The notes below the pieces were generated by a model that made no database searches, was not told where the DNA came from, and saw nothing but the letters and a program-made list of their open reading frames with translations. From UHGV virus genome UHGV-0364865: a stretch of 16,820 nt of DNA; one strand, written 5' to 3'. The first letter of the stretch is position 1. Each line of letters starts with the position of its first letter. Origin of the DNA: a virus. The position numbers were made by a program, and so were the translations under genes. Shown here in pieces: positions 1,627 to 16,820 of the stretch.

Positions 1627-2024
1627 GTCTTACCCCCAATAAGGGGATTTGCTCTATTTAATTAGGAATAAGGTCGATTACTGATAGAACAAATCCAGGC
1701 TACTGTGTTTAGTAATCAGATTTGTTCGTGACCGATATGCACGGGCAAAGCGGCATGAGGTTGTTAGCGCAGCCTCTTGCCACCCGCTTTCACGAAGGTC
1801 ATGTGTAGAAGGCCGCAGCGTAACTATCACTGATGAATTCAGGATAGCCAGTGGCTACGGCTCAGTTTGGGTTGTGCTGTTGCTGGGCGGCGATGACGCC
1901 TGTACGCATTTGGTGATCCGGTTCTGCTTCCGGCATTCGCTTAATTCAGCACAACGGAAAGAGCACTCGGTGCATTTAAGACAAGCTCCATAAGGGAGAA
2001 TGCTCTTACCTGTTACACAGATAT

Positions 2025-2082
2025 AAAAAATCCCGAAACCGTTATGCAGGCTCTAACTATTGCCTGCGAACTGTTTCGGGAT
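2025..2082 (-). terminator. tR' terminator of the short pR' (6S) transcript
   Basis: Minus-strand RNA forms a long hairpin (UCCCGAAAC ... GUUUCGGGA with an inner GCAGGC/GCCUGC hairpin) followed by a U6 run (plus-strand A-run 2025-2030); about 190 nt downstream of the pR' start, as in lambda. Confidence 0.8.
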
Positions 2083-2217
2083 TGCATTTTACAGACCTCT
2101 CAGCCTGCGATGGTTGGAGTTCCAGACGATACGTCGAAGTGACCAACTAGGCGGAATCGGTAGTAAGCGCCGCCTCTTTTCATCTCACTACCACAACGAG
2201 CGAATTAACCCATCGTT
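2025..2217 (-). ncRNA. 6S-type short late transcript from pR' to tR'
   Basis: Inferred from pR' (-10 at 2224-2229) and tR' (2025-2082); predicted length about 193 nt, close to lambda's ~194 nt 6S RNA. The overlapping 68-aa plus-strand ORF 2060-2266 is regarded as spurious. Confidence 0.6.
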
Positions 2218-2223
2218 GGGTCA

Positions 2224-2252
2224 AATTTACCCAAGTTTATTCAAAAAGTCAA
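2224..2252 (-). promoter_or_regulatory. Late promoter pR' with overlapping Q-utilisation (qut) region
   Basis: Minus strand reads TTGACT (2252-2247), a 17-nt spacer, then TAAATT (2229-2224), directly downstream of Q; the surrounding sequence closely resembles lambda pR' as I recall it. Confidence 0.8.
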
Positions 2253-2294
2253 TATCATGCCGTTAATATGTTGCCATCCGTGGAAATCATGCTG

Positions 2295-2918
2295 CTAACG
2301 TGTGACCGCATTCAAAATGTTGTCTGCGATTGACTCTTCCTTGTGGCATTGCACCACCAGAGCGTCATACAGCGGCTTAACAGTGCGTGACCAGGTGGGT
2401 TGGGTAAGGTTTGGGATTAGCATCGTTACAGCGCGATATGCGGCGCTTGCTGGCATCCTGGAATAGCCGACGCCTTTGCATCTTCCGCACTCTTTCTCAA
2501 CAACTCTCCCCCACTGCTCTGTTTTTGCTATATCAACCGCACGACCTGTACCGTGGCAATCTCTGCATCTTGCGCCCGGCGTCGCGGCACTACGGCAATA
2601 ATCCGCATAAGCGAATGTTGCGAGCACTTGCAGTACCTTTGCCTTAGTATTTCCTTCAAGCTTTGCCACACCACGGTATTTCCCCGATACCTTGTGTGCA
2701 AATTGCATCAGATAGTTGATAGCCTTTTGTTTGTCGTTCTGGCTGAGTTCGTGCTTACCGCAGAATGCAGCCATACCGAATCCGGCTTGTGATTGCGCCA
2801 TCCCCATAGCAGCCATCACATCAGTACCGGAAAGAGAGTCAGAAGCCGTAGCCCGTGGTGAGTCGCTCATCATTGGGCTTTTTGGCGAATGAAATTTAGC
2901 TACGCTTTCGAGTCTCAT
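2295..2918 (-). CDS. Q: Late-gene antiterminator Q
   Basis: 207-aa ORF, MRLESVAKFHSPKSPMMSDSPRATASDSLSG...CRDCHGTGRAVD...ECGRCKGVGYS..., matches lambda Q including the zinc-binding Cys cluster; start overlaps the ninH stop (ATGA). Confidence 0.95.
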   Translation of the reverse strand: MRLESVAKFHSPKSPMMSDSPRATASDSLSGTDVMAAMGMAQSQAGFGMAAFCGKHELSQNDKQKAINYLMQFAHKVSGKYRGVAKLEGNTKAKVLQVLATFAYADYCRSAATPGARCRDCHGTGRAVDIAKTEQWGRVVEKECGRCKGVGYSRMPASAAYRAVTMLIPNLTQPTWSRTVKPLYDALVVQCHKEESIADNILNAVTR

Positions 2919-3103
2919 CGTCTTCCCCTCTTGCCCTGTTTGACCATCAGGACGCCGTTAACTATTACGTGACGCTCACCTTTGCTGTCTCGGTTGTACT
3001 TGAGCACTGTTCCTCTTGCGCAGGAAAGCATCCTCGCCACTTCGGTCTGATTGTCTCGTGTCTGGATAAGAAGCTCTGGTATCGTTTGAATTGTGGCGTT
3101 CAT
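2915..3103 (-). CDS. ninH: NinH-like small DNA-binding protein
   Basis: 62-aa ORF with GNQTEVARxLxCxRGTVxKY and VNxVLMV motifs resembling lambda NinH but clearly a divergent allele; sits immediately upstream of Q as in lambda. Confidence 0.7.
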   Translation of the reverse strand: MNATIQTIPELLIQTRDNQTEVARMLSCARGTVLKYNRDSKGERHVIVNGVLMVKQGKRGRR

Positions 3104-3462
3104 GCGTTCTCCAGTTCGGTGATTTTTATTCCAAGCCGTCCGCCTGGTACTTTCACACCACGAATTACGCGAATGTCATCGAATTGCTCGTCGTCTTCCG
3201 CAAATCCGGCGTGGATAAGGGAATCGAGTAAACCTTTCAGGATGTTGTCGAGGTCGCGGCGGCGGGAGTCTGGAACGTCTGCGATGACTTTGATGCGGAG
3301 TCGTGATTTGGTGAAAATGTCTAACTTAAGTTGGCGGATGATTTGCTGAACGTCTTTTCGGTATTTCTGGCCTTTATCGCTTATGTAATATTGGCTTCCC
3401 CGTCTTCGCCAGTAGGTATTCACCGACGGCGGGTATGGAAGCACAAACTGATATTCGTTCAT
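3100..3462 (-). CDS. rusA: RusA-family Holliday junction resolvase
   Basis: 120-aa ORF with the RusA signature region (..PDxRRRDLDNxxKxxxDxL...D.D....V.K....GG.L...I.E); ATGA overlap with ninH; ybcO-rusA order as in the DLP12 prophage. Confidence 0.8.
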   Translation of the reverse strand: MNEYQFVLPYPPSVNTYWRRRGSQYYISDKGQKYRKDVQQIIRQLKLDIFTKSRLRIKVIADVPDSRRRDLDNILKGLLDSLIHAGFAEDDEQFDDIRVIRGVKVPGGRLGIKITELENA

Positions 3463-3749
3463 GACTTAATCTTCCCCTCCCTCAGCAGTATCGCCTGCGT
3501 CCTGATCACGCCTTCGAGGTGGTAAAGTCTGGCGTCTTTGTTGTCGATATTATGGGTGCGTCGGTCGATCTCCGCGTGGCAGTCACTACAAGCCCATGCA
3601 CCGATCAGGTCGTCAGGCTTCATTCCCGTTCCGCAAATTCCAGCCATCCGGTAATGTGCCAGAACTGTAGTTTCAGGATTGCCATTGCATACGCCGTAAA
3701 TACGTACCTGGCATTCTCTGTTGCGCGCTTCTTTGCGTAGGTTAGCCAT
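3459..3749 (-). CDS. ybcO: YbcO-like DUF1364 protein (putative nuclease, Cys/His metal-binding)
   Basis: 96-aa ORF with conserved C/H residues (C..C...H, CSDCH); located immediately upstream of rusA as in DLP12; family assignment from memory. Confidence 0.55.
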   Translation of the reverse strand: MANLRKEARNRECQVRIYGVCNGNPETTVLAHYRMAGICGTGMKPDDLIGAWACSDCHAEIDRRTHNIDNKDARLYHLEGVIRTQAILLREGKIKS

Positions 3750-4474
3750 TAAGCAGCCTCTCCTGTTACTTTCAGCATTCCGTTATCGAGCAGCTTTCTG
3801 GTCAGCCACTGTTGGCCACGTCCGGTGATTTTTGTAGTGAACGATATCTGTATTCCGTGATTTGTGTTGACCGCTGTTTCTTTCACTGTGAAATAGCCGC
3901 GATCCATATATTCCTGCATTGGCACATTGCGCCGGGAACCTGAAGCAATAAGGATTTTGTGATCGCGCATCCACGCAAACAGTTTGTTTGGACCAATTCC
4001 AACAACCTTTGCAAAGTTTCCAATCAAAATTCCGCTGGCCTCGCCAACGCGATCGGCAAACTCAACTTTAGGTGCGGCAATTGCGAGCTGGTTTTCCAGT
4101 TGCATTTTCTGCTCAGCAAGGTTAGCAGCAAGGCGCAACGCTTCTGGTAGCGTTTTGGGGATATTAACCGCAGCTTCTTCAAGCTCTCGCCAACGGTCAA
4201 CAAGGCGAGCGGTGAACTCTGGCGACAACTGGGCGACGACAATAATGCTGTCTCGCTTTCCTTGTTCGCCCTCGAAGACGTAGAAATCACGCTTCCCGGT
4301 AATAACACCTAAATCATTGATTATGTTAGTGTGCTGCAATGCAGGAGGCTTGATAACGCCACGTTTCACCAATCTATCTATGGATACTTTTACATTGCTA
4401 TGGCGGCTTTCTACCAACTCAGCGATTTCAATGCTTGTCATTTTGATGGCATTGCCATTTATTAACTCATTCAT
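3749..4474 (-). CDS. Rha-family phage regulatory protein fused to a KilAC-type antirepressor domain
   Basis: 241-aa ORF; N-terminal region (TSIEIAELVESRHSNVKVSIDRLVKRGVI) resembles the Rha domain; C-terminal region (..FAKVVGIGPNKLFAWMRDHKILIASGSRRNVPMQEYMDRGYF) resembles the KilAC antirepressor domain; good SD (GAGGAAG) before the first ATG. Confidence 0.65.
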   Translation of the reverse strand: MNELINGNAIKMTSIEIAELVESRHSNVKVSIDRLVKRGVIKPPALQHTNIINDLGVITGKRDFYVFEGEQGKRDSIIVVAQLSPEFTARLVDRWRELEEAAVNIPKTLPEALRLAANLAEQKMQLENQLAIAAPKVEFADRVGEASGILIGNFAKVVGIGPNKLFAWMRDHKILIASGSRRNVPMQEYMDRGYFTVKETAVNTNHGIQISFTTKITGRGQQWLTRKLLDNGMLKVTGEAA

Positions 4475-4637
4475 CGTCTTCTTCCTCGAACATTGAGCTA
4501 TTCGGATCGCTCATCAGTTCTGCGCAGCAGTGCTCACATACGTGAACTTCCAGCACATGCAGCTTCTGACCGCAATTAGCGCACGTTAAAGCCCGCTCGA
4601 CGCTTTCTTGTTCGTAACTTCGATTTGGGTCAATCAC
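4467..4637 (-). CDS. ninF: NinF-like small zinc-finger protein
   Basis: Ends ...[48 protein letters not shown], matching lambda NinF as recalled. Start placed at a GTG (4635-4637) that overlaps the ninE stop (GTGA); the tracked ORF extends upstream to an ATG at 4679 that would overlap ninE by 46 nt. Confidence 0.65.
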
Positions 4638-4816
4638 CTTGTATTCCTCGCACGATTTCTTAGCCACCGGATATCCCACAAGTGAGCCGTGTAGTTGAAG
4701 GTTTTTACGTCAGATTCTTTTGGAATTGGCTTGCGTTTATTTCTGGAGCGTTTCGTTGGAAGGTATTTGCAGTTTTCGCAGATGATGTCGGTGAAACTTC
4801 GTCGCTGTCGTCTCAT
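4634..4816 (-). CDS. ninE: NinE
   Basis: 60-aa product [60 protein letters not shown], close to lambda NinE; start chosen at the internal Met of the 90-aa tracked ORF, giving an ATGA overlap with the methyltransferase stop. Confidence 0.8.
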
Positions 4817-5340
4817 GTCGCCCTCCTGACGCCCTGCCCGATCGCCATCAATGCCGCTTTGGATACGGTAGTAAACATCCGTCGAGGACTGATGAACGGT
4901 CGCCAAATCAGCAGCATGGAGCCTTTGCTGTTTCCCTTCTTCTCCAGCCCCGTCGATGGTTCGATAAAATTAATCCGTCCATCAGTGATGATGCGAACTT
5001 CGTCAACGCTCTCCAGAGCCTTGCTGAACCATCCGACTGACATATCCTCTGGCACAAGCATCACTACCGTCTGTCGCTGTTGTATGCACTGCTCAGCAGC
5101 TTTTTCCACCCACGGCCTGATATTGCTGTACGGTGGGTTATTCCAGATTGCACCGTGGCTTACCCACTCAGAATTGAGCGCGTCGTCGGCCTCAGTTAGC
5201 CAGTGAGCGCACAGAGCATTTTTGTCGCTCGCTGCCGAATCCAGCCAGAATCCAAACTCAATATCCAGTGCATCAAAAAGCCAAAGCGGCGTTTGCCAGC
5301 AGTCCTTGTCGTGTGCCGGCGTATTTGATTTGATAGTCAC
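4813..5340 (-). CDS. Phage Dam-type DNA N6-adenine methyltransferase (orphan)
   Basis: Contains the WQTP...[11 protein letters not shown]-terminal motif and the catalytic NPPY tetrapeptide (IWNNPPYS). Start placed at a GTG (5338-5340) with SD AGGAGAGG upstream and a GTGA overlap with the upstream gene; the tracked ORF start at 5376 lacks an SD. Confidence 0.8.
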
Positions 5341-6064: not shown

Positions 6065-7441
6065 TCATACGTCAGCCCCTTGTGCATATCGTCTGCCACG
6101 CGCAGCAGGTGCATTTGATGCTGTGCAAATCTGTCTGGCTTCATCCTGGTCACACGCAACAAAGTGTCCGTTGCAGAACCGCTGGTAAACCGTACCAAGT
6201 GAGCCAAAACGGTTTTTCGTCACGATGATTTCAGCAAATGGCGCGGCGCTACTGTTCTCGTCATATACAGCTTCCCGATAGAGCATGATGATTGAGTCTG
6301 CGTCCTGTTCAATGCTTCCTGAATCACGCAAATCTGCGTTTGTCGGGCGCTTGTTTGGTCGCTTCTCAACATCGCGTGAAAGCTGACTCAGGGAAATAAC
6401 CGGTGTTTTCAGGTCTTTCGCCATCGCCTTCATGCTTCCGGAGATGTGAGCAATTGCGAGGTCGTTGCGGTCTGCTTTCGGCTTCTCAATCAGGCCAAGA
6501 TAATCCGCCATGATGAGTGACAGGTTTGGATTTTCCTGTTTGTGCCTTTCTGCGATTGAGCGAATTTCTTCGACCGATAACCGCGAGGCATCGACTACCC
6601 ATACATCCAAATCTGCAAGCTGACTCATGCCGTTAGCAACACGCGCCCAGCCTTCGTCATCCATCGATGCAGGATTTCGCAGTACGCTAACCGACATTCT
6701 CCCGGCGTTGGCAATGCTTCGCTCTGCAATCTGCAATGCGCTCATTTCCATTGAGAAAATCAATACTCCGCGCCGGACGTCAGAACCAGGAATAACGCGG
6801 CTTGCAACGCCTTCGGCAATCTTCAGCGCCAGTTCGGTTTTCCCCATACCAGGACGAGCAGCGATTATCACCAGGTCTTCTGCGTTCATCCCTCCGGTGA
6901 TAGCGTCAAGCTCTTCGATTCCGGTCTTCAGGGTATCGGACTCTTCTCCGTTCCTCAGACGCCTGTCAAGCGTGTCAGTGTAGTCGGTGATGATTTCCCC
7001 TAACCGTACAGGTTTAACCTCGTCACGGGGCTTTCTGATAGCTGAAAGACGCTTTACGAGCTCGTCCATCGCCTGACTCGATGTATCGATGGTTCCGCTC
7101 TGAATTGGTTCACGCATTTCATCCATGATTTCCAGCACCAGACGGCGGTGATAGTTATCCGCGACCATTCCGGCATATCCCTTCAGGTTTGCGGCACTCG
7201 GGCAGTTTTTGCTGGTCATCAGGATTGACGTGAAATGCTCCTCTCCGCACGCCTCGGCAACCATCAGCGCGTCGATTAGGTTTCTGTTTCGCGCCTGCTT
7301 GCGGATAACCTCGAAGGCTTTCCGGTAGAGCGGAATTGAAAACGCTTCCGGCTCCAGCGTTGCCAGAACGTCGCTGGCGGTTGGTGTTAATCCACCAATC
7401 AGCAGGCCACCGATAACGCTCGCTTCGATATCCTGTTTCAT
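6065..7441 (-). CDS. Replicative DNA helicase, DnaB-like (P22 gene 12 type)
   Basis: 458-aa ORF with DnaB N-terminal domain and a RecA-like core: Walker A (ARPGMGKT), Walker B-like (LIMADYLGL), and typical DnaB motifs ([20 protein letters not shown]); ATGA overlap with the initiator gene. Confidence 0.9.
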
Positions 7442-8385
7442 GCAATCCCCCTGTCTGCAAACTTCCCTTCCCGAACTCCCGTTAACGAGTCTTCTCTCAG
7501 CAGGTAATCAAAATCAGCCGTCCAGCCCGTGTCGTTGTCTCCGAAGTAAAACGGCTTGGCCTGATGCACAAACGCCCTGACATACGCCCTGAAACCGTCC
7601 ACGTTTGGCGTTTTCAGTTGCGGGATGATTTTCTTCAGGCGGCGTTTGCGTTTCTCGTTGACCGCAACAGCGTGTGGCAGTCTGTCACCGACTTCGGTGT
7701 TGTAGGCGTTCAGGAAGGATTCGTAGTCGATTCGTTCTGCCTTGCGACGTTCAGGTTTAACCTGCCCATCGCCTCCCCCATTGGGGGGTAGGGGGGTATT
7801 ATTTATATTCTTGTTAATACCTTCTTGTTCATGATGTGCGGTTGTTTGTGCGGCTTCATGTGCGCTTTCATGTGCGGCATGTACGCTGAAAGCCGCGCCA
7901 TTGCTGGCTTCATCATGTGCGGAATCATGTGCGGTTGTTTGTGCGGCTTCATGTGCGGGTAAATCGTCCATTTTTTGAGCATATTCATGGTAATTTGTGA
8001 TGGTTATCACACGACCTTTTTGCTTCTCTCCATCAATGGAGATCATCCCCTCTTTCACAAAAACCTGAAGCATCCGCTCAACCTGATCACGGCTTGCTGG
8101 CTTGCCATGTCTGTCGCATAACTGAAGACCTAAATCAGCTGCTGTCACAACCAGTTGACCGGGTTGCAGATGCCATTCATTACCTTTGAAATTCGCTTTG
8201 TATGGCTTTCTGGCGGCATTCAGGAGAAGGTTTTCCCACAGGGTGCGAAGATAAACATCTTTCGCCCATGACTGTTTCAGAATGCTCCGGTACAACGGAA
8301 TGTAACCAGTTTTCTGGTTCTCCATCCTGTTGCTCCTGCGCTCGTGTGCGGCGCTGAAATCGTAGATTTTTGCTGTATTGCTCAT
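7438..8385 (-). CDS. Replication initiator, lambda O-like (P22 gene 18 type)
   Basis: 315-aa ORF; N-terminus [10 protein letters not shown] resembles lambda O (MTNTAKILNF); internal repetitive linker ([10 protein letters not shown]...) is encoded by DNA iterons; directly upstream of the helicase. Confidence 0.8.
7829..7958. repeat. Origin-type iterons inside the initiator gene: tandem ~12-bp units (consensus about YTTCATGTGCGG) in two clusters, including a perfect 31-bp direct repeat (7834-7864 and 7927-7957), with an adjacent AT-rich block at about 7797-7820
   Basis: Read directly from the sequence; the arrangement (iterons plus AT-rich segment inside the O-like gene linker) parallels ori-lambda. 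The 61-aa ORF 7803-7988 is an artefact of these repeats. Confidence 0.75.
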
Positions 8386-12074: not shown

Positions 12075-13043
12075 ATGAGTGAAGTAACAGATTTAGTTGT
12101 TATTGAAAAAGCAAATGCAATGACTGTATTTCAGTCTTCCGACCAGATTGAAGAAATCCTTCAAAAGGTTGAACGTGAAGTTATGTCCTTTGTGCCTGAT
12201 ATCACAACGGCAAAGGGCAGAAAGGAGATCGCTTCTCTGGCGTATAAAGTTGCGCAGACGAAAACATATCTCGATGGTCTTGGCAAAGACCTTGTTGCTG
12301 AACTGAAGGAAATTCCAAAGCTAATTGATGCCAACCGCAAGACAGTGCGTGATCGCCTTGATGAGCTGAAAGCCAAGGCACGCCAGCCTCTTACTGATTA
12401 TGAGGAAGAACAGGCGCGGATTAAAGCCGAAGAAGAAGCTAAGGCAGCAGCTGAAGCTCTCGCAAAGCAAATTGAGTCTGACCATGAAATAGCGATTTTG
12501 ATGGATCGCGAATTTGACCGCCAAAGAGAAGAGGCAAGACTCAAAGCGGAGCAGGAAAAGCGAGAGCATGAAGAACGATTAAAAAGAGAAGCTGAAGAGA
12601 AAGCCAGAGCAGAAGCCGAAGCAAAGGCAAAAGCCGAAATTGAAGCAGCAGCAAGGCGAGAAGCAGAAGCTAAGGCCGCAGCAGAACGTGCAGAGCGTGA
12701 ACGCATTGAAGCCGAGCAACGAGCACAGCGCGAAGCAAAAGAGGCAGCAGAACGAGCTGAAAGAGAAAAGCAGGCAGCAATTGAAGCAGAACGCAGAAAA
12801 GCACAGGAGGAGGCTGAACAAATCCGTCGCGATGCTGAAGCAAAAGAGCAAGCCAGAATAGCAGAAGAAAAAAGAATCAAGGACGAAGAAGAGCGTAGAG
12901 CAAAGGATAAAGATCACCGGAAAGAAGTAAATAACAAAATACTTGCTGACCTTATCAAGGTTGGCGCATCAGAAGATGTTGCTAAAAATATCATAACAGC
13001 CATCGTAAAAGGCGAAGTATTCGCAACAAAAATAACCTACTAA
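12075..13043 (+). CDS. Hypothetical protein with a long, highly charged E/K/R/A-rich central helical region
   Basis: 322-aa ORF with strong SD AAGGAGG; about 120-aa N-terminal region, about 150-aa central segment made almost entirely of E, A, K, R, Q (predicted single alpha-helix or coiled coil), and about 45-aa C-terminal region; antisense ORFs across it are low-complexity artefacts. Confidence 0.65.
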   Translation: MSEVTDLVVIEKANAMTVFQSSDQIEEILQKVEREVMSFVPDITTAKGRKEIASLAYKVAQTKTYLDGLGKDLVAELKEIPKLIDANRKTVRDRLDELKAKARQPLTDYEEEQARIKAEEEAKAAAEALAKQIESDHEIAILMDREFDRQREEARLKAEQEKREHEERLKREAEEKARAEAEAKAKAEIEAAARREAEAKAAAERAERERIEAEQRAQREAKEAAERAEREKQAAIEAERRKAQEEAEQIRRDAEAKEQARIAEEKRIKDEEERRAKDKDHRKEVNNKILADLIKVGASEDVAKNIITAIVKGEVFATKITY

Positions 13044-13590: not shown

Positions 13591-14298
13591 ATGGATTTGA
13601 ACAAATTCGATGAGCCATTCAGCCCTGAAGATATCGAATGGCGAATACAGCAAAGCGGTAAAACACGCGATGGCAAGGTGTGGGCTATGGTGCTGGCTTA
13701 TGTCACGAACCGGGCAATCATGAAACGCCTGGACGATGTTTGCGGCAAAGCAGGATGGCGCAATGAATACCGCGATATTCCCAACAACGGCGGAGTTGAA
13801 TGCGGCATATCAATCAAGATTGATTCCGAATGGGTAACCAAATGGGATGCTGCTGAAAACACGCAGGTAGAAGCCGTCAAAGGTGGTCGTTCCGGTGCAA
13901 TGAAGCGTGCTGCCGTTCAGTGGGGAATCGGTCGGTATCTGTATAACCTTGAGGAAGGTTTCGCACAAACATCTCTCGATAAAAAGCAGGGGTGGCACAG
14001 GGCAAAACTGAAGGATGGAACAGGATTTTACTGGTCCCCTCCATCGCTGCCGGGATGGGCAATCCCAGCATCAGATAACAAACCATCACCAGAAAATACC
14101 AACCAGAAATCTCCATCGGTTGACTGCGAACAAATCCTGAAAGACTTCAGCGATTATGCGTCAACAGAAACTGACAAGAAAAAACTCATCGAGCGTTATC
14201 AGCGTGACTGGCAATTAATGGCTGGCAACGAGGAGGCGCAGGCTAAATGCGTTCAGGTAATGAACATCAGAGTTAACGAACTAAAACAGGCGGCATAG
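13591..14298 (+). CDS. Single-strand annealing protein, Rad52-like (Sak-type) N-terminal region with a separate C-terminal domain
   Basis: 235-aa ORF with SD GAGGTG; sits directly upstream of ssb in the early-left operon, in the position occupied by recombination genes in lambda; N-terminal region resembles Rad52/Sak annealing proteins (from memory); C-terminal ~70 aa looks like a separate, possibly Erf-like, tail. Confidence 0.5.
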   Translation: MDLNKFDEPFSPEDIEWRIQQSGKTRDGKVWAMVLAYVTNRAIMKRLDDVCGKAGWRNEYRDIPNNGGVECGISIKIDSEWVTKWDAAENTQVEAVKGGRSGAMKRAAVQWGIGRYLYNLEEGFAQTSLDKKQGWHRAKLKDGTGFYWSPPSLPGWAIPASDNKPSPENTNQKSPSVDCEQILKDFSDYASTETDKKKLIERYQRDWQLMAGNEEAQAKCVQVMNIRVNELKQAA

Positions 14299-14805
14299 AT
14301 GGCAAGCAGAGGCGTAAATAAGGTGATTATCCTTGGTCGGGTAGGACAAGACCCGGAAGTTCGATACTCACCATCAGGAACAGCGTTCGCTAACCTGACA
14401 ATAGCCACGTCAGAACAATGGCGAGATAAAAATACTGGCGAGCAAAAGGAATTGACTGAATGGCATCGTGTTGCTGTATCCGGGAAACTGGCTGAGGTCG
14501 TGGGGCAGTATGTGAAAAAAGGTGATCAGATTTATTTCGAGGGAATGCTGAGAACCAGAAAGTGGAAAGACCAGTCAGGGCAAGACCGTTACACAACCGA
14601 GGTTCATGTCGGAATTAATGGCGTGATGCAAATGCTTGGCAGCATTGGCGACAGCAAACAACAAGCAGCCAGCAGGCAATCACAGAAGCCACAGCAGCAA
14701 TCATCACCAGCACAACACAACGAACCTCCGATGGATTTTGACGACGATATACCCTTTGCACCAGTAACTCTCCCCTTCCCTCGTCACGCTATTCACGCAA
14801 TTTAA
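14299..14805 (+). CDS. ssb: Single-stranded DNA-binding protein (SSB) with a C-terminal extension
   Basis: 168-aa ORF; N-terminal OB-fold region close to E. coli SSB ([18 protein letters not shown]....TEWHRV..GKLAEV...[18 protein letters not shown]); the canonical tail [11 protein letters not shown] is present but followed by 15 more residues ([15 protein letters not shown]) before the stop. Confidence 0.9.
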
Positions 14806-14818
14806 TCAGGAGAAAATC

Positions 14819-15115
14819 ATGCCAGCGCCTCAGTATGGTGCGGATGACCCGCGCCGCTGTTCCGGTAATTCCGTATCGGAGGTGCTGGATAAATTCAGGA
14901 AAAACTACGACCGGATAATGTCGCTACCGCAGGAAACGAAAGAGGAAAAGGAATTTCGCCATTGTATATGGCTTGCAGAGAAAGAAGAACGCGAGCGAAT
15001 TTACCAGACATCAATCCGACCATTCCGCAAAGCCACATATACCAACTTCCCTGAATATATCGACCCGCGCCTGCGTAATTACCGCTCACGCTATGGCGCT
15101 ATCAGTAATGACTGA
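14819..15115 (+). CDS. Hypothetical protein
   Basis: 98-aa ORF with SD AGGAGA upstream. Confidence 0.5.
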
Positions 15116-15125
15116 GGAATTTACC

Positions 15126-15293
15126 ATGAGAGGACTTGCATACAATCCCGGCATTCTTCCGGCAGAAATGATTATTCGCCAACGCGTAAAGCCAATGCCA
15201 TCGAGAGAGGAATTGCTTAAGAGAAAGAGTTTCGGTTCTGTTAACGACAACAGATATCTGAATGCGACGTGGCGCAAAGGAGGCAACCAGTGA
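15126..15293 (+). CDS. Hypothetical small protein (55 aa)
   Basis: Start placed at the ATG at 15126, preceded by SD GAGGAA; the tracked 106-aa ORF would overlap the upstream gene by about 140 nt. Confidence 0.4.
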
Positions 15294-15544
15294 GTAATTC
15301 AGCACGACTACAGCTTGGTTTTTCACCGCTATCAAAAACTATCATGCTGGCAAAAATGCGCGATGTTGAAGGTGGACGTATGCGCGTTGGCAATGATCCA
15401 GGTCGTGATGTTACCAATGAGGCTGCTCAATTGGTGTGGCGACTGGTCATGGCTGAAGGTGGTGAGATCGCGTGGGAGCTGGATGATGGTTCTCGCATGG
15501 TGTTGAAGGCAGAAAAGCAGGAGGCAACCAGTGAGCAAGATTGA
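15290..15544 (+). CDS. Hypothetical protein (84 aa, GTG start)
   Basis: GTG at 15290 preceded by AAGGAGG with a 6-nt spacer and overlapping the upstream stop (GTGA). Confidence 0.45.
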
Positions 15545-16349
15545 CTATCAGGCACTGCGTGCCAAGGCAGAAAAAGCAACGTGTGGTGTATGGTCGCTCG
15601 AATATGGAGAGAGCCGATTTGATTGTGATGATGCGCTAATTCATCGTGACGTTGTTGGATATCTTCCCATTTGCAGAATTGAAGGAGCGCATCCTGAAAG
15701 CGGTTTCGATGAAGATTTCCAAATGGAACAGCAGGCCAATGCTGAATTCATCGCCGCAGCTAATCCGGCTACCGTCTTGGCATTACTGGATGAACGGGAA
15801 AGAAACCAGCAATACATCAAACGCCGCGACCAGGAGAACGAGGATATTGCGCTAACGGTAGGGAAGCTGCGCGTTGAGCTGGAAGGCAAAGACAGCAAAA
15901 TAGCCAATCTTACCGCCGAACGCGATGCTCTTCGTGAAGGTGAGATGGGCGACGCTAGGCATAGCAACACACGGGCCGCAGCTGATATCTACTTCCAACT
16001 GGTCGAGGAGTGCGAAATTCCTGCTGGCGGTTCTCTGGTCGAGTACGTTGACGATATGCGAGAGAAGCTGGAAGCCTCAGAGAAGCGCATTGCAGAACTG
16101 AAAAGCAACGAAGTCCGTGAAGTCGGAAATCAGTTTCTTGTTGTTCGCCATCCTGGGAAAACTCCTGTCATCAAGCACTGCACTGGTGACCTGGAAGAGT
16201 TTCTGCGGAAGTTAATCGAACAAGACCCGTTAGTAACTATCGACATCATTACGCATCGCTATTACGGGATTGGCGGTCAATGGGTTCAGGATGCAGTTGA
16301 GTATCTGCATATGATGTCTGACGCTGGCATTCGCATCAAAGGAGAGTGA
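15531..16349 (+). CDS. ead/Ea22-like protein
   Basis: 272-aa ORF with a GTG start preceded by the same AGGAGGCAACCA cassette; N-terminal domain (ALRAKAEKATCGVW...AEFIAAANPATVLALL) of the ead/Ea22 type, followed by a coiled-coil-like middle region; family assignment from memory. Confidence 0.5.
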   Translation: MSKIDYQALRAKAEKATCGVWSLEYGESRFDCDDALIHRDVVGYLPICRIEGAHPESGFDEDFQMEQQANAEFIAAANPATVLALLDERERNQQYIKRRDQENEDIALTVGKLRVELEGKDSKIANLTAERDALREGEMGDARHSNTRAAADIYFQLVEECEIPAGGSLVEYVDDMREKLEASEKRIAELKSNEVREVGNQFLVVRHPGKTPVIKHCTGDLEEFLRKLIEQDPLVTIDIITHRYYGIGGQWVQDAVEYLHMMSDAGIRIKGE

Positions 16350-16350
16350 C

Positions 16351-16820
16351 ATGACCACTTTTACCGACAAAGAACTGATTAAAGAAATCAAAGAGCGAAT
16401 CGGCAGCCTGGACGTGCGAGACAATATTGAGCGCCGTGCTTATGAACTTGCTCTGGCATCGCTGGAAGCAGAGCCGGTGGCGTGGATGCGTGATGACGCA
16501 GATGGTCGTGAGTATAACGCTCGCAATGAATTTTCTGGTGGAGGGGGAGGAGTTCCACTCTACGCCACCCCTCCAGCGCCAGTAGTACCGGAAGAAAAAC
16601 CAATTCCTAATCCTCTTAGCATGTACGCGGTTGATGCGGTTGCCGCTATTGCAGAGGTAAGAGGCTGGAACGCCTGCCGCGCTGCCATGCTTCATAGTGC
16701 CGAACCTGCAAGTAATCATGAAGAGTTGCCGCTTGATTATCTCCAAGGTCAAAAAGATGGTCTTGAATGGGCTGCGCAGCTTGCAGAAGCAAATCACCCA
16801 CAAACTGGCGACTGGCTTTA
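16351..16820 (+). CDS. Hypothetical protein, truncated at the 3' window edge
   Basis: ATG at 16351 with SD AAAGGAGAG; open frame (MTTFTDKELIKEIKERIGSLDVRD...) runs to the end of the window without a stop; contains a GGGGG linker. Confidence 0.5.
   Translation, partial: MTTFTDKELIKEIKERIGSLDVRDNIERRAYELALASLEAEPVAWMRDDADGREYNARNEFSGGGGGVPLYATPPAPVVPEEKPIPNPLSMYAVDAVAAIAEVRGWNACRAAMLHSAEPASNHEELPLDYLQGQKDGLEWAAQLAEANHPQTGDWL

Follow-up and report, generated by a model that had tools for sequence, protein, structure and literature searches.

Why are the starts of two successive genes of one virus embedded in exactly the same 17 nucleotides (nt)? The question is raised by the UHGV virus genome UHGV-0364865, a stretch of 16,820 nt (the window, meaning the whole stretch that was analysed), in which AGGAGGCAACCAGTGAG is found on the + strand at 15278-15294 and again at 15519-15535. 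A sequence-only reading of the window had pointed out both copies, taken each as the ribosome-binding site and start of the next gene, and proposed that they could act as recombination linkers for module exchange or mark a duplication. The two copies lie exactly where it had placed them. From the comparative analysis below, we consider that this cassette probably couples the translation of neighbouring genes and, at the same time, offers a short stretch of homology as a recombination linker. It sits in the early-left (PL) operon of a prophage of the lambdoid or P22-like kind, where its two copies delimit a slot between the DUF2737 and ead genes:

15126..15293, + strand: DUF2737 gene, 55 amino acids (aa), left anchor of the slot (PF10930, 2.1e-28; RefSeq).
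15278..15294, + strand: cassette copy 1, with the Shine-Dalgarno (SD) sequence AGGAGG, CAACCA and the GTG of gene B; it also encodes the DUF2737 tail (K)GGNQ-stop.
15290..15544, + strand: gene B, DUF7446 (PF24233), 84 aa, the exchangeable module between the cassette copies.
15519..15535, + strand: cassette copy 2, with the same SD, spacer and GTG, here for the ead/Ea22-like gene; gene B reads it as ..KQEATSEQD-stop.
15531..16349, + strand: ead/Ea22-like gene, 272 aa, right anchor of the slot (PF13935, 8.4e-29; RefSeq).
15532..15562, + strand: conserved 5' leader of ead genes, 30 of 31 bases identical to the 'bsq3; boundary sequence' of the Sf6 record (TGAGCAAGATTGACTATCAGGCACTGCGTGA).

Chance was rejected as the origin of the two copies within the window, where 0.02 matches are expected and none of 200 shuffles contained two. 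No further copy is present in the window on either strand with up to three mismatches allowed, and, iteron-like repeats aside, the 17-mer is the sole exact direct repeat of at least 17 nt in these 16.8 kb. The identity covers exactly 17 nt, after which the flanks of site 1 (gcgcaa/taattc) and site 2 (aaaagc/caagat) differ; in most other phages the shared core at copy 1 runs 5 nt further to the left (CGCAA, 15273-15277). Both copies consist of AGGAGG (15278-83; 15519-24), a 6-nt CAACCA spacer and GTG (15290-92; 15531-33), and each GTG opens a long open reading frame (ORF), the SD and start of the next gene being supplied by the cassette. At site 1, the DUF2737 stop TGA (15291-93) overlaps the GTG, giving GTGA and a 4-nt overlap. 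At site 2, gene B crosses the cassette in a different frame and ends at a TGA (15542-44), such that the first base of the GTG and the first base of the TGA are 11 nt apart and B and ead overlap by 14 nt. This agrees with the sequence-only reading in every particular, including the position of the starts: the RefSeq annotation of an identical prophage (E. coli EC11, MS14385) gives the same coordinates for all three coding sequences, and homologues have ATG at the same position as the GTG (AGGAGGCAACCAATGAG variants; ATGAGCAAG in Sf6). Further along the operon, the ead-DUF551 junction (16336-16353) reads ATCAAAGGAGAGTGACATG and resembles the two ends of the cassette (CAAAGGAG...AGTGA) without its middle; it could be a degenerate relative or a coincidence.

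The cassette is widespread among related phages, in which the sequence-only reading had suggested that it be sought. Scanning IMG/VR for the exact 17-mer yielded at least 120 contigs, several of them with two copies spaced by 241, 584, 589, 761, 1054 or 1058 bp. When loci were sampled through DUF2737, without reference to the cassette, the exact 17-mer stood at the end of the gene in 50 of 80 and a version with at most two mismatches in 75 of 80, and at least seven unrelated gene families came after it. Among 80 loci sampled through gene B, most had the cassette on both sides. The cassette together with bsq3 was found as a block in 336 phage records, comprising Escherichia, Stx, Salmonella and Shigella phages. 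Of 5426 complete E. coli genomes, 2813 match the 2-kb region around it, but only nine cover at least 80% of that region, which is thus extremely mosaic. Between 458 and 494 of the E. coli matches are located on plasmids. Taken together, the sequences indicate that Escherichia-type lambdoid, P22-like and some large plasmid-like prophages share the 17-mer as a gene-junction cassette in their hypervariable early-left region (ea/exo-xis), which holds accessory genes.

Outside Escherichia-type prophages, the 17-mer is without meaning and occurs at chance level only: a scan of one genome per species (596 Gb) returned 65 matches against approximately 69 expected, and only two were in Escherichia. About ten Paraburkholderia/Burkholderia species carry the exact 17-mer once each (loci L289, L297, L299, L307, L321, L323, L326, L333, L335 and L337), probably in one conserved chromosomal gene, as a coincidence unrelated to the phage cassette. 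PhiR41_1 (L352), a 108-kb circular phage quite unlike the lambdoids, has a whole ea-type array at 1998-5229 (eae-like, DUF7446, Ea22, EaA and Ea22 again), with a cassette-flanked B that is 98.7% identical. In addition, pseudogenised copies without B or with alternative modules, which have a frameshifted ead or an internal DUF2737 stop, were observed in the chromosomes of E. coli 09-00049 and O26:H11 11368 (L205 1270-1755; L355 324-610, 1069-1545). Decaying prophages also carry the cassette, and could therefore be potential donors.

Around the cassette, the flanking genes are extensively shuffled, as a comparison of five reference phages is enough to show. Phage and prophage loci were pooled into 233 distinct contexts (190 with the exact 17-mer), which fall into 32 left-flank and 15 right-flank classes joined in 62 combinations. 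The start of ead was joined to 27 left classes and gene B to 11, and seven right classes follow the end of DUF2737. At least 18 module clusters have the cassette on both sides, with spacings of 241-2435 bp. Many of these doubly flanked modules are complete ead-like genes that start with VSKIDYQ.. and end with ..QLRKGGNQ-stop; the cassette is thus what ordinarily joins ead-family genes in tandem. One cassette-flanked module (L075, 7782-8852) encodes a protein of 335 aa (VSIVQRCRAEST..) whose SGGKDS motif suggests a PP-loop/PAPS-reductase-like enzyme, and the slot therefore takes larger enzymatic genes too.

Gene B itself is found both absent and in foreign surroundings. In mEp213, the end of DUF2737, a single cassette and the start of ead follow one another, B being precisely absent, and a prophage of E. 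coli 09-00049 is in the same one-cassette state. Aligning the window with these two gives a clean indel of 241 bp bounded by the repeat. In HK97 and HK620, an unrelated upstream gene (gp37/hkaH) ends in the same cassette ahead of the ead start, and in Sf6 the end of DUF2737 and a cassette with one mismatch are followed by a third gene. Conversely, locus L131, found through the B protein, has a B interior 100% identical to that of the window between two exact cassettes, in flanks that are unrelated (ungapped identity 0.23 over 75 nt of the left flank and 0.31 beyond bsq3); L137, L149 and L160 are comparable cases. An identical B between unrelated flanks implies that the transferred unit is cassette, B, cassette and ead leader. 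A synthetic B-less junction had no copy of at least 99% identity in E. coli genomes, which rules out a very recent deletion derivative of this prophage at that identity. Among B-less relatives, the identity reaches about 96%, and in many the slot is occupied by an hkaH-like module instead.

If the joints between modules had been made at random, they would be expected to scatter. Among pairs of loci homologous on the left side only, identity ended 0-1 nt past the cassette in 2079 of 2160; among those homologous on the right side only, it ended 0-5 nt before the cassette in 1672 of 1851, the extra bases often being CGCAA. In other words, 90-96% of informative pairs break at the edges of the cassette. 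For a further 11,267 pairs, the cassette was the sole shared sequence. At the right-hand side, the conserved sequence is extended by the ead leader. The bsq3 of Sf6 adjoins cassette copy 2 with an overlap of only 4 nt, the 17-mer not being inside the annotated bsq3, and copy 2 plus the leader make up a conserved block of approximately 43 nt (15519-15561) that is the usual right-hand exchange point. The right-hand breakpoint often falls at about 15561, 26 nt beyond the cassette and at the end of bsq3, where many megablast matches stop.

The 32 left-flank classes also differ in how they read the cassette. In 20 of them it is read as ..(R)KGGNQ-stop, with the TGA overlapping the GTG, and 12 unrelated classes, B included, read it as ..(K/Q)EATSEQD-stop, their stop lying 11 nt inside the ead leader; none of the 32 is in the remaining frame, in which the two genes would be fused. 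The use of two upstream frames means that a single coding constraint does not explain the conservation. The second-frame stop is kept in both variants of the ead leader, 11 nt into the gene (15540-15545; L018, L011 and others): ATTGAC (I-D) provides TGA, and ATTAAT/ATTAAC (I-N) provides TAA at the same position. The DUF2737 domain covers residues 1-51, the tail encoded by the cassette being at the extreme end, and the Pfam match of B covers residues 7-79, its last five residues (TSEQD) being encoded jointly by the cassette and the ead leader. Both domains end just before the tails, which are therefore mostly a by-product of the way the genes are joined.

Variants of the cassette are consistent with common origin. 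The spacer was a one-step derivative of CAACCA in 177 of 225 variants, which indicates descent and not convergence. In a lineage designated type 2, B is bordered on either side, within one genome, by a variant specific to that lineage (AGGAGCCGCCCAATGAG; AGGAG(G)CCGCCCAATGAG); a Yersinia phage likewise carries AGGGGGCAAAC.. at each of its B junctions (L353, 1489 and ~1730), and diverged B homologues have AGGAGCCG[CT]GC[TA]ATGAG or AGGAGGCCGCCCAATGAG with ATG starts on both sides (L183-L194, ~1489-1505 and the 3' ends of B). No cassette was found at the junctions of the B homologue of Klebsiella phage SopranoGao. The 3' junction of type 2 is 1 nt longer, and B stops there at an ATGA overlap (..KQEAAQ-stop); the window form is one base off this junction, so that B runs on, a difference that fits a joint formed within the shared CAGGAGGC.

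How such a junction could work may be outlined as follows. The SD lies in the upstream ORF, 6 nt ahead of a GTG that overlaps or closely precedes the upstream stop, an arrangement that suggests coupled translation. A promoterless gene behind the cassette would thus be translated from the long PL transcript, and an upstream ORF, whichever of the two frames it uses on entering, still ends within 11 nt of the start. The same sequence at many junctions of co-infecting phages and resident prophages would provide a patch of short homology, 17-22 nt for the cassette alone and approximately 43-48 nt with the ead leader/bsq3. Recombination at this patch would insert, delete or replace whole genes while expression is kept, and may be carried out by phage single-strand-annealing proteins, RecA or template switching during replication. 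The upstream Rad52-like/SSB/Abc2 module is a candidate catalyst. In the window, B would be one module in the slot from DUF2737 to ead, hence two cassettes 241 bp apart, and recombination from copy to copy would excise exactly B and leave behind a single-cassette junction like that of mEp213. The anatomy of the junctions, the reassortment of modules, the breakpoint positions and the one- versus two-copy states are read directly from the genomes, and we infer from them that exchange proceeds by homology-dependent recombination within the cassette. According to De Paepe 2014 (PMC3945230), phage recombinases drive mosaicism even where the phage sequences have diverged from each other.

Several points weigh against this explanation. 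The shortest segments that pair efficiently are quoted as 23-27 bp (Redbeta) and 31-34 bp (RecA) in PMC3945230; the bare cassette of 17-22 nt is below both, although the block of cassette and bsq3 exceeds them. The exchange at the left edge would therefore be rarer, inefficient or dependent on another mechanism such as template switching. The case for recombination in the cassette is wholly comparative. The first set of loci was selected by an exact match to the 17-mer, which inflates its apparent invariance, an effect offset by the samples based on DUF2737 and B. The 5' and 3' cassettes within a genome are closer to each other than permuted pairs (3.94 vs 4.68; 12 of 5000 permutations), a comparison that ignores the kinship of the genomes. 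HK620-type phages join DUF2737 to hkaH through ..GGGAAGAAATGA rather than the cassette, and the ead gene of Sf6 has an ATG start without one; thus, the cassette is not obligatory. The second junction type (..TGGCGGAGTGGGAAGAAATGAAACAAATG, with an ATGA overlap) was found in HK620-type phages and in many E. coli O26 prophages (L002 1770-1795; L356 ~465-495; L355 ~465-490), and DUF2737 there ends in ..MWRSGKK-stop, as opposed to ..WRKGGNQ-stop with the cassette.

A stronger form of the proposal would regard the ea region as an integrase-free array of gene cassettes, in which the 17-mer is a selected, frame-tolerant docking signal for gene capture, promoterless expression and mini-circle excision, actively promoted by the Rad52-like/SSB/Abc2 module. 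We consider this unlikely.

It is also unlikely that the cassette reflects functional constraint only, being an optimal initiation region laid over coding sequence, with joints made by random illegitimate recombination followed by selection (the Hendrix model) and no role of its own in recombination. Each component, from AGGAGG and the 6-nt spacing to the start and the overlapping stop, has a function, and part of the conservation can be explained by these overlapping constraints, as the ..KGGNQ-stop frame leaves only two or three positions free. Moreover, most mosaic boundaries of phages are said to lack conserved sequences (PMC3029335), which is the usual objection to the linker view, and other junction types do exist in the DUF2737-ead slot. 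However, CAACCA and the two bases after GTG are identical too, with variants one step away, which points to homology; the remaining eight junctions of the same operon have unrelated ribosome-binding sites and ATG starts; unrelated upstream genes read the cassette in two frames; the breakpoints cluster at its edges rather than scatter; and an identical B brings both cassettes along into unrelated contexts.

A dedicated site-specific system (integron-like, a homing endonuclease or the footprint of transposition) would make the repeats recombination sites or target-site duplications. Direct repeats around a small promoterless ORF, its one- and two-copy states and the cassette arrays are what such a system would leave. 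On the other hand, neither dyad symmetry nor a hairpin was found in the 17-mer, which is long for a target-site duplication and is the same sequence at all sites. No linked dedicated recombinase is evident, the sole integrase nearby being the prophage tyrosine integrase at the attachment site, and the recombination modules of the carriers differ (Erf, Sak4, Rad52-like). The right-hand breakpoint at the end of bsq3, 26 nt further on, also fits homology better than cleavage at a fixed position. A system of this kind is highly improbable.

We give equally little credence to a shared operator, through which a repressor or small RNA would co-regulate the genes post-transcriptionally, as RegA does in T4. 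Identical initiation regions on successive genes would permit co-regulation, and the conservation exceeds what an SD and a start minimally need. Nevertheless, the window contains no sequence complementary to the cassette with up to three mismatches allowed, and a conserved RNA structure was not found: folding at the two junctions is no better than that of shuffled sequences (z-scores +0.94 and -0.66), and an RNA element was rejected on this basis. An operator would also leave the coincidence of breakpoints and cassette unexplained. The two roles are compatible, and an operator could coexist with a linker.

The least probable explanation is a remnant of tandem duplication, with B and ead, or DUF2737 and B, as diverged paralogues and the 17-mer as their last trace: identical copies 241 bp apart at successive gene starts, and the tandem ead-like paralogues that start and end with the cassette in other phages, would suit it, but the B and ead proteins show no significant similarity (BLASTP E=0.16), each of the three genes falls in a Pfam family of its own (DUF2737, DUF7446 and Ead_Ea22), the identity stops at exactly 17 nt, and B follows 11 unrelated left neighbours. 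Gene duplication was therefore rejected. Neither of the two findings that the sequence-only reading had named as counting against it was made, as the cassette is present at gene junctions of related phages and the starts are at the GTGs it had pointed out. Of the two ideas put forward by the sequence-only reading, the linker gains support from the flank combinations, the edge breakpoints, the 241-bp indel and the identical B in unrelated flanks; the duplication does not hold for the genes, as only the junction is repeated.

The coupling junction and recombination linker favoured here has relatives among known systems. Boundary or linker sequences at mosaic boundaries, with homologous recombination at them as the proposed mechanism, go back to Susskind and Botstein, Clark et al. 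2001 (HK620) and Casjens et al. 2004 (Sf6), as cited in PMC3029335. The lambdoid bsq sequences resemble the cassette in being short, conserved and placed at module boundaries, in the same phage group and genome region, where they join different modules. On the other hand, Sf6 has no 17-mer at its bsq3-ead junction, and the cassette only abuts the annotated bsq3. A search of full-text literature for the cassette or bsq3 sequence gave no match, the original HK620 and Sf6 papers being outside its coverage, and neither did one for Sf6 and 'boundary sequence', which did not cover the original Sf6 paper. What is documented here is the initiation and stop-overlap role, the use of two frames and the number of doubly flanked modules; the SD-GTG part may have been described before.

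The PeSLs of T4-type phages (Arbiol et al. 2010, PMC2839356) are closer in function. They too are expression signals, with a 3' SD and start, that flank small non-essential ORFs in hyperplastic regions, and a sibling genome without the ORF has a single copy, as was found here. An ORF is lost or gained by recombination between the PeSLs on its two sides, with expression kept intact, and PeSLs are regarded as linker sequences (PMC2839356). However, a PeSL is approximately 100 bp long with a sigma-70 promoter and a terminator stem-loop, whereas the cassette has 17-22 nt and neither. No promoter-like site was found in 14800-16400 and no terminator-like site on the + strand at the junctions, and a PeSL-type promoter/terminator cassette was rejected accordingly. 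PeSL mini-circles have been demonstrated experimentally, whereas the cassette is known from sequence comparison and acts on translation within one operon. It works like a PeSL but is not a member of that family.

Integrons share with the ea region arrays of promoterless accessory ORFs, an upstream promoter, a recurring site and the gain or loss of single cassettes. Their attC is an imperfect inverted repeat served by the IntI integrase, neither of which was found at the 17-mer; the recurring site here is coding sequence and translation signal, and exchange is most likely driven by homology. Ordinary ATGA/GTGA coupling junctions also have the SD inside the upstream ORF and the 4-nt GTGA overlap seen at site 1. 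They are gene-specific, in contrast to the cassette, whose 17 nt recur unchanged at dozens of unrelated gene pairs and which tolerates a second frame with a 14-nt overlap.

The operon to which the cassette belongs runs in the order Rad52/Rad22-family annealing protein, ssb, abc2, DUF2737, B, ead/Ea22-like, DUF551, DUF4752, xis-like helix-turn-helix gene and integrase, followed by the host gene sbcB. Upstream of the slot, the following genes were annotated:

13591..14298, + strand: Rad52/Rad22-family single-strand annealing protein gene (Pfam search, RefSeq).
14299-14805: ssb.
14819-15115: abc2, anti-RecBCD (PF11043).

Besides the cassette, two other groups of repeats were observed in the window. 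A cluster of direct repeats spaced by 12 nt (..TCATGTGCGG..) at 7828-7970 lies inside a minus-strand ORF of 315 aa (7438-8385) that adjoins an ORF of 458 aa (6065-7441); the repeats have the appearance of origin iterons, and the ORF around them that of a lambda O-type replication initiator gene. Imperfect repeats of 36-37 nt (GAAGCNAARGC..GCAGAACG..) at 12435-12873 lie within a gene of 322 aa (12075-13043), annotated in RefSeq as a coiled-coil domain protein, and are a coding repeat of the EAKAAAERAERE type.

The locus bears on the debate about phage mosaicism, namely whether modules are exchanged by homologous recombination at short linkers or joined by random illegitimate recombination followed by selection. 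It is a quantifiable and manipulable counter-example to the view that most boundaries lack conserved sequences, one cassette of 17 nt being at the breakpoint of dozens of gene combinations. This is unsurprising to phage genomicists, but it is an unusually clean and tractable case of the boundary-sequence route already proposed. The cassette also accounts for oddities of annotation in this region, such as GTG starts, 14-nt overlaps and the common C-terminal tails KGGNQ and EATSEQD. If the docking-signal proposal were true, the array would parallel T4 PeSLs and integrons on the translational level, and would serve the rapid turnover of accessory genes, possibly for host takeover or anti-defence, among lambdoid, P22-like and plasmid-like prophages. 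The locus reaches the prophage complements of roughly half of complete E. coli genomes, and, since the cassette can be recoded while SD, spacing and GTG are kept (for example as AGGAGGTTCTAAGTGTC), it offers an experimental handle on the share of short homology in the turnover of accessory genes in Stx and other lambdoid prophages.

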